Part shown: positions 41,978 through 43,276 of the stretch, piece after piece | Layout of the letters: the number at the start of each line of letters is the position of its first letter | Position numbering within the stretch: the first letter of the stretch is position 1 | Assembly (NCBI RefSeq): GCF_988243305.1 | Contig: NZ_OZ547136.1 | Reading direction: 5' to 3' (one strand) | Length of the DNA stretch: 64,000 bases | Notes under the pieces: generated by a model | What the model saw: only the letters and a program-made list of their open reading frames with translations | What the model was told of the DNA's origin: nothing | Databases searched by the model: none | Translations under genes and position numbers: made by a program

Positions 41978-43276
<1,299 letters not shown>

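Follow-up and report, generated by a model that had tools for sequence, protein, structure and literature searches.

A premature stop at codon 306 of lacY in one Escherichia coli clone with intact lacZ, lacI and lac operator

The lac operon and the stop in lacY

The window analysed here is a stretch of 64,000 nucleotides from contig NZ_OZ547136.1 of RefSeq assembly GCF_988243305.1, and it carries the standard chromosomal segment of E. coli that runs bet-yah-prp-cod-cyn-lac-mhp-frm. Among 5,426 complete RefSeq E. coli genomes the best matches to parts of the window stand at 99.0-99.3%, and none of these genomes holds a near-identical match to any part of it. The lac genes lie on the minus strand, with the following features.

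46480..47562 (-): lacI, intact; three residues differ from K-12, C-terminal
46358..46479 (-): lac promoter/operator, intact; operator AATTGTGAGCGGATAACAATT present
43283..46357 (-): lacZ, intact, 1024 aa; an identical protein is on record (P0031, E. coli beta-galactosidase)
41978..43231 (-): former full frame of lacY, 417 codons plus stop, now a pseudogene
42317..43231 (-): truncated coding part of lacY, 305 aa, helices I-VIII and part of IX, from profile and PDB matches
42314..42316 (-): premature TGA, lacY codon 306; the plus strand reads 'tca', and K-12 has TCA (Ser)
41978..42289 (-): residual in-frame ORF, 103 aa, helices X-XII, from GTG codon 315 to the normal stop
41301..41912 (-): lacA, intact, 203 aa; downstream of the untranslated lacY tail

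Reading positions 42314..42316 and translating 43231..41975 on the minus strand confirmed the claim of the first-pass annotation that codon 306 of lacY is an in-frame TGA. Translation gives 305 residues, ending in ...TIMSVRIIG, and then the stop (the ORF list holds this frame as 42314..43231, minus strand, 305 aa); beyond it the same frame stays open to the normal C-terminus, ...RRQVNEVA. The derived base is position 42315, a G on the coding strand and a C on the plus strand. A single C-to-G change in a Ser codon (TCA to TGA) had been proposed as its origin, and TCA is what both K-12 and two clone-mates with an intact gene (L015, L016) carry at this site. Compared with the K-12 reference (L020:5115-6368), lacY of the window is equal in length and differs at 15 nucleotides, comprising 13 synonymous changes, F93L and S306*. 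Because the differences are nearly all synonymous, the gene appears to have been under strong purifying selection until recently; 13 synonymous changes set against one missense change besides the stop would fit a long period of such selection followed by a recent loss of constraint.

The remainder of the operon is undamaged. As had been claimed from the first reading, the frames of lacZ and lacA are open at 1024 and 203 aa, respectively, and LacA matches the galactoside O-acetyltransferase equivalog NF007076 over its full length (466.7 bits against a cut-off of 347, coverage 1-203 of 203). The start of lacA is ATG here and TTG in K-12 (window 41912..41963), and with an in-frame ATG further upstream the mechanical ORF reaches 220 aa; clone-mates are accordingly given a lacA of either 203 or 206 aa in public gene calls. 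The stretch 46330..46600, which covers the 3' end of lacI and the promoter, is found at 99% identity or more in 436 complete-genome records and at 100% identity in all matches listed, including those of strains 042 and E2348/69. Relative to K-12, there are three single-base differences within 46358..46479, at the centre of the CAP site, in the -35/-10 spacer and in the ribosome-binding region of lacZ; given the frequency of 46330..46600, these look like a common natural allele. The lacI/promoter/operator region is also the same in clone-mates with intact and with mutant lacY. The locus combines a disrupted lacY with intact lacZ, lacI and promoter/operator, as expected of a lacZ+ lacY- loss of the permease.

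Distribution of the allele and lacY states within the clone

To place the stop among known E. coli, a 61-bp query centred on codon 306 was compared with the complete RefSeq genomes, of which 5,338 out of 5,426 matched. None of these 5,338 matched the TGA query at 100%; all fell in the 95-99% band, and each of the matches listed differs from it by exactly one base. Codon 306 is thus TGA in none of these complete genomes, and the stop is no common polymorphism. An exact-pattern scan of JGI metagenome contigs and GTDB species representatives did not find the allele, and our search of the literature returned no description of a lacY S306* allele.

The allele does recur in other public data. It is carried by a contig of run ERR2932835 (L001), which matches 6,292 bp of the window at 100% and is common to 7 samples, by GCA_029362355.1 together with 13 similar places, by SRR12208310 (5 samples), and by the gut-metagenome assemblies ERZ28644580, ERZ28590110, ERZ27246304, ERZ28646229, ERZ28647756 and ERZ917936. 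Labels of the type 'VATA22-2' presumably refer to a Bangladeshi infant cohort. ERZ917936 is labelled PRJEB9150, the Dhaka cholera gut-microbiota study, and we read the label 'DAVI15-1' of ERZ28590110 as belonging to this study too. PRJEB9150 addressed the post-cholera gut microbiota in Dhaka and comprises metagenomes of cholera patients and household contacts (PMC4442136).

The first-pass annotation had allowed for a sequencing error, in which the true codon would be TCA and the stop an artefact of one assembly. A single-base difference is the commonest type of error, and the allele occurs in no complete RefSeq genome; however, the same base was obtained by different groups with different methods and assemblers (NCBI isolate assemblies, Logan assemblies of several SRA and ENA runs, and ENA metagenome assemblies). 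The comparison with other isolates of the lineage that the annotation had called for finds TGA recurring in datasets of the clone and TCA in clone-mates only 2-3 SNPs per 11 kb away, which indicates that the site is truly polymorphic within the clone. We regard error as excluded because TGA occurs in many independent datasets, and the chance that it nevertheless explains the stop is vanishingly small. On the sequences compared, the stop at codon 306 is best described as an inherited lineage marker. The number of its carriers should not be read from the exact 305-aa protein with F93 (P0046, '63 contigs'), which includes partial genes at contig ends: L028-L030 are unrelated lineages, about 98% identical, whose contigs end at lacY nucleotides 914-916. 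An interpretation of such contig ends as a sign of mixed TCA/TGA populations was likewise dropped, as these contigs belong to other lineages.

Public carriers of TGA form one near-identical clone, with 1-3 SNPs per 11-22 kb, and loci that encode the exact LacZ protein of the window lie 1-3 SNPs per 11 kb from it. Three states of lacY are found in this clone. The intact state (417 aa, TCA at codon 306) is seen in L015 (GCA_017598645.1) and L016 (GCA_050545845.1), which are 2-3 SNPs per 11 kb from the window. The S306* state is seen in L003/L021, L014, L019 and L022-L026, in addition to the window and L001. The third state, with TCA at codon 306 and an in-frame deletion of 84 bp, is seen in L012, L013, L017, L018 (complete genome CP170299.1) and L031; GCA_013008275.1 is among the assemblies with this state. 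Two further sites in lacY and one insertion sequence distinguish members of the clone.

42711..42794 (-): 84 bp present in the window and deleted in a sister sub-branch; lacY nucleotides 438-521, residues 147-174, helix V
42953..42955 (-): F93L, lacY codon 93 TTT to TTA, SNP at 42953; only in the window and L001 (ERR2932835)
33846..35122: IS621 copy (IS110 family), with a transposase ORF at 34036..35016 (+) encoding a 326-aa 'RNA-guided transposase'

The 84-bp deletion lies between 8-bp direct repeats (TGGCTGTG) and leaves a product of 389 aa (P0047, in 101 index blocks) from which Trp151, among other residues, has been removed. In public records this shortened LacY goes by 'oligosaccharide MFS transporter' or 'MFS transporter', names that imply an intact protein, and we consider it probably an unrecognised null allele. 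Searching the literature for an '84-bp deletion' in lacY matched only an unrelated Salmonella paper. The deletion haplotype has TCA at codon 306 and the deletion is missing from the nonsense haplotype, so that the two lesions arose independently from one shared ancestral haplotype. Of the 25 longest contigs for the LacZ protein (similar places counted), roughly 20 have the deletion, 2 have S306* and 3 are intact, a rough tally that is not a population estimate; carriers of either lesion outnumber intact members among the sampled contigs.

Neither the other S306* carriers nor the intact and deletion alleles have F93L; it sits on the S306* background and is the second change in lacY of the sub-branch to which the window belongs. 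Compared over 22.5 kb with a deletion-type clone-mate, the window differs by three SNPs (one in mhpB at 50989 and two in lacY at 42953 and 42315), the 84-bp deletion and one IS621 insertion. If SNP 42315, the one that led to the choice of this window, is set aside, two window-specific SNPs are left in the 22.5 kb and lacY holds one of them, for which the chance is about 0.11; a single F93L is not statistically compelling as evidence of relaxed constraint. The mhpB SNP affects codon 221, which is CAG (Gln) specifically in the window and GAG (Glu) in L021, L022, L026 and L031.

The IS621 copy is inserted in a REP sequence between prpE and codB, with flanks ...CTTATCAGGCCT|IS|...TATCT ACCCAC, at what we take to be the canonical IS621 target. 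Clone-mate L021 has the empty site ATCAGGCCTACCCAC, and the insertion is therefore recent and polymorphic within the clone. In two other S306* carriers, L022 (ERZ27246304) and L025 (ERZ917936), an IS3-family element adjoins codB and replaces prpE, followed in L022 by an unrelated oxidoreductase gene; either a rearrangement mediated by an IS or chimeric assembly of the metagenomes could account for this arrangement.

Predicted loss of the permease and possible ways around the stop

The 305-aa product clearly belongs to the LacY/oligosaccharide:H+ symporter family (TIGR00882, NF007077; Pfam LacY_symp) and stops short of the full 12-helix profile. It scores 527.2 bits against NCBIfam TIGR00882 (cut-off 220) over profile positions 1-300 of 396 and 493.5 bits against NF007077 (cut-off 429) over positions 5-309 of 421, and it corresponds to residues 1-305 of 417 in the LacY chains of PDB entries 2V8N and 1PV6. 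As coverage of these chains ends at residue 305, the statement in the first-pass annotation that the truncated product lacks the last transmembrane helices holds. Nine residues of LacY are reported to be essentially irreplaceable for active transport (Glu126, Arg144, Trp151, Tyr236, Glu269, Asn272, Arg302, His322 and Glu325); Arg302 lies in helix IX and His322 and Glu325 lie in helix X, and a salt bridge between Asp237 and Lys358 is required for membrane insertion and stability (PMC6605686). The irreplaceable residues up to position 305 are kept in the product, while His322 and Glu325 lie after the stop. By residue numbering the stop falls four residues past Arg302, so that the end of helix IX and helices X-XII are gone.

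The most probable explanation for these observations, which we would give a probability of roughly 87%, is that S306* arose by an inherited C-to-G change and yields a permease-null, ONPG-positive strain that ferments lactose slowly or not at all. A spontaneous C-to-G transversion in an ancestor would have turned codon 306 from TCA into TGA and been inherited by a sub-branch of the clone. Translation would then end inside helix IX, giving a product without helices X-XII and without His322, Glu325, Lys319 and Lys358, which would be unable to couple galactoside transport to protons and would probably be unstable; the loss of transport is a strong expectation from the established biochemistry of LacY. 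The lac operon would still be inducible and beta-galactosidase still made, and the predicted phenotype is ONPG-positive with little or no lactose uptake and with lactose fermentation that is slow or lacking. Polarity from the 336 untranslated nucleotides that precede lacA may lower its expression. Single-base changes of the TGA could give rise to Lac+ revertants (papillae). Elsewhere in the genome there may be another galactoside transporter, a lac operon on a plasmid or a suppressor tRNA.

One may postulate an alternative in which UGA306 is leaky or recoded, through near-cognate tRNA-Trp, a suppressor tRNA or selenocysteine, such that enough full-length permease is made to be useful and the strain is only a delayed fermenter. 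UGA is the leakiest and least efficient stop codon in E. coli, the downstream frame is open to the normal C-terminus, and a small amount of full-length S306W permease could result; of the hedge in the first-pass annotation that the stop might be suppressible or leaky, low-level readthrough is the part that may still hold. No support for this hedge was found. The base after UGA is a U, which makes for fairly efficient termination, and one more missense change, F93L, has gathered in lacY. No SECIS stem-loop was found 3' of UGA306: the 68-nt segment 42322..42255 on the minus strand folds at -12.1 kcal/mol against a shuffled mean of -15.2 (z = +1.17), and 181 of 200 shuffles are as stable or more so. 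Selenocysteine or other programmed recoding was rejected on this lack of structure and on the UGA being a recent swap of a conserved Ser codon. Nor was a suppressor tRNA found within the window, where the sole tRNA call, a tRNA-Ser(GGA), has no Rfam support. Useful readthrough is therefore an improbable account of the locus, although a less remote one than sequencing error.

A different route to function would be a split permease, in which the 305-residue fragment and a C-terminal fragment reinitiated at GTG315 or ATG323 assemble and work. The ORF from GTG315 begins 24 nt past the stop and is called by gene callers, which often give the 103-aa product an entry of its own as a small 'lactose permease' or 'MFS transporter' protein; moreover, Bibi and Kaback are said to have found in 1990 that co-expressed halves of LacY can complement each other. 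The starts available to a C-terminal fragment are poor, however, with weak or absent Shine-Dalgarno pairing at codons 315, 323, 331 and 343: the predicted pairing is -3.3 kcal/mol before GTG315, where it lies directly against the start, and +0.4 before ATG323, compared with -6.1 at the true lacY start. The cut also interrupts helix IX instead of a loop, and neither fragment would contain residues 306-314; splits within LacY helices reportedly did not give function (Zen et al. 1994). The sequence thus predicts neither an efficient C-terminal start nor a split in a loop, and we consider reassembly very unlikely, more so than useful readthrough.

The tRNA-Ser(GGA) call was made by ARAGORN at 24897..24977 on the plus strand, in the yahL-yahN interval. 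It has no Rfam tRNA match even at E values up to 1 and is probably a false positive.

Selection on the permease and comparison with known lac losses

Within a single clone lacY appears to have been knocked out at least twice while lacZ, lacI and the operator were spared, a pattern suggestive of selection against permease activity. This interpretation must be made cautiously, as a test for an excess of hits in lacY is confounded by the retrieval of the loci through the products of lacY and lacZ, and the pattern can be suggestive only. If shedding permease activity was positively selected in the clone and not merely tolerated, the gain might have come from ending the cost of a proton leak or the uptake of a harmful gut galactoside; we view this as a possibility, though a doubtful one. 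Constitutive expression as the driver of lacY loss was considered and rejected, as LacI, the operator and the promoter are intact and the region is identical in clone-mates with intact lacY.

Regardless of its cause, the allele has practical implications. The base at 42315 is a clean marker of one sub-branch of the clone, members of which appear among clinical and surveillance assemblies as well as gut metagenomes from Dhaka. On MacConkey agar its carriers would probably pass for lactose-negative strains or late fermenters, and might be overlooked or wrongly identified. Counts of pseudogenes understate the loss of lacY, since the 389-aa LacY without helix V is named as an intact transporter. 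Two independent knock-outs of lacY with lacZ spared would also add a natural case to the question of whether permease activity carries a cost in the gut.

Other lineages of E. coli carry a variety of lesions in lacY, which we retrieved through the 103-aa C-terminal ORF and which lie just upstream of codon 315. They include an IS1 insertion (L007), a 1,437-bp insertion encoding an IS4-type transposase (L006), an 11-bp deletion (L002), a 35-bp insertion (L004), and +1 and +4 frameshifts (L008, L010, L011). One locus, L027 (SRR17780559), has TAA at the same lacY codon 306 in an unrelated lineage that is about 98.5% identical to the window; as a single base change turns TCA into either TAA or TGA, this represents an independent nonsense hit at the same site. 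These public disruptions are separate events from the one described here, on backgrounds about 97-98.5% identical to the window, and some of them (e.g., L005, L009) may be artefacts of indel-rich long-read assemblies.

Permease deficiency is a textbook cause of slow or absent lactose fermentation in E. coli (PMC9669651). A frameshift deletion in lacY marks the pandemic lineage ST1193 / clonal complex 14 (PMC11488385), and a two-codon deletion in lacY explains why one uropathogenic isolate is a non-fermenter (bioRxiv 10.64898/2025.12.03.691977). When a constitutive, lacI-defective strain colonised mice, lac loss-of-function mutations arose without lactulose, and a lacY frameshift found in a human isolate reverted when lactulose was present (bioRxiv 10.1101/2025.03.26.645536). 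Unlike the in-host cases of lac loss, which concern constitutive lacI or lacO mutants, the window has an intact lacI and operator, as do its clone-mates with intact lacY. The closer likeness is to ST1193 / clonal complex 14, in which a small lesion in lacY is inherited by a clonal branch, lacZ is kept, and absent or slow fermentation is expected (PMC11488385, PMC9669651); the present lesion differs in being a nonsense change at codon 306 instead of a frameshift, and it is found in a different clone that has no representative among the 5,426 complete RefSeq genomes. S306* is thus a new allele in a gene whose lesions are already a known cause of non-lactose-fermenting E. coli.
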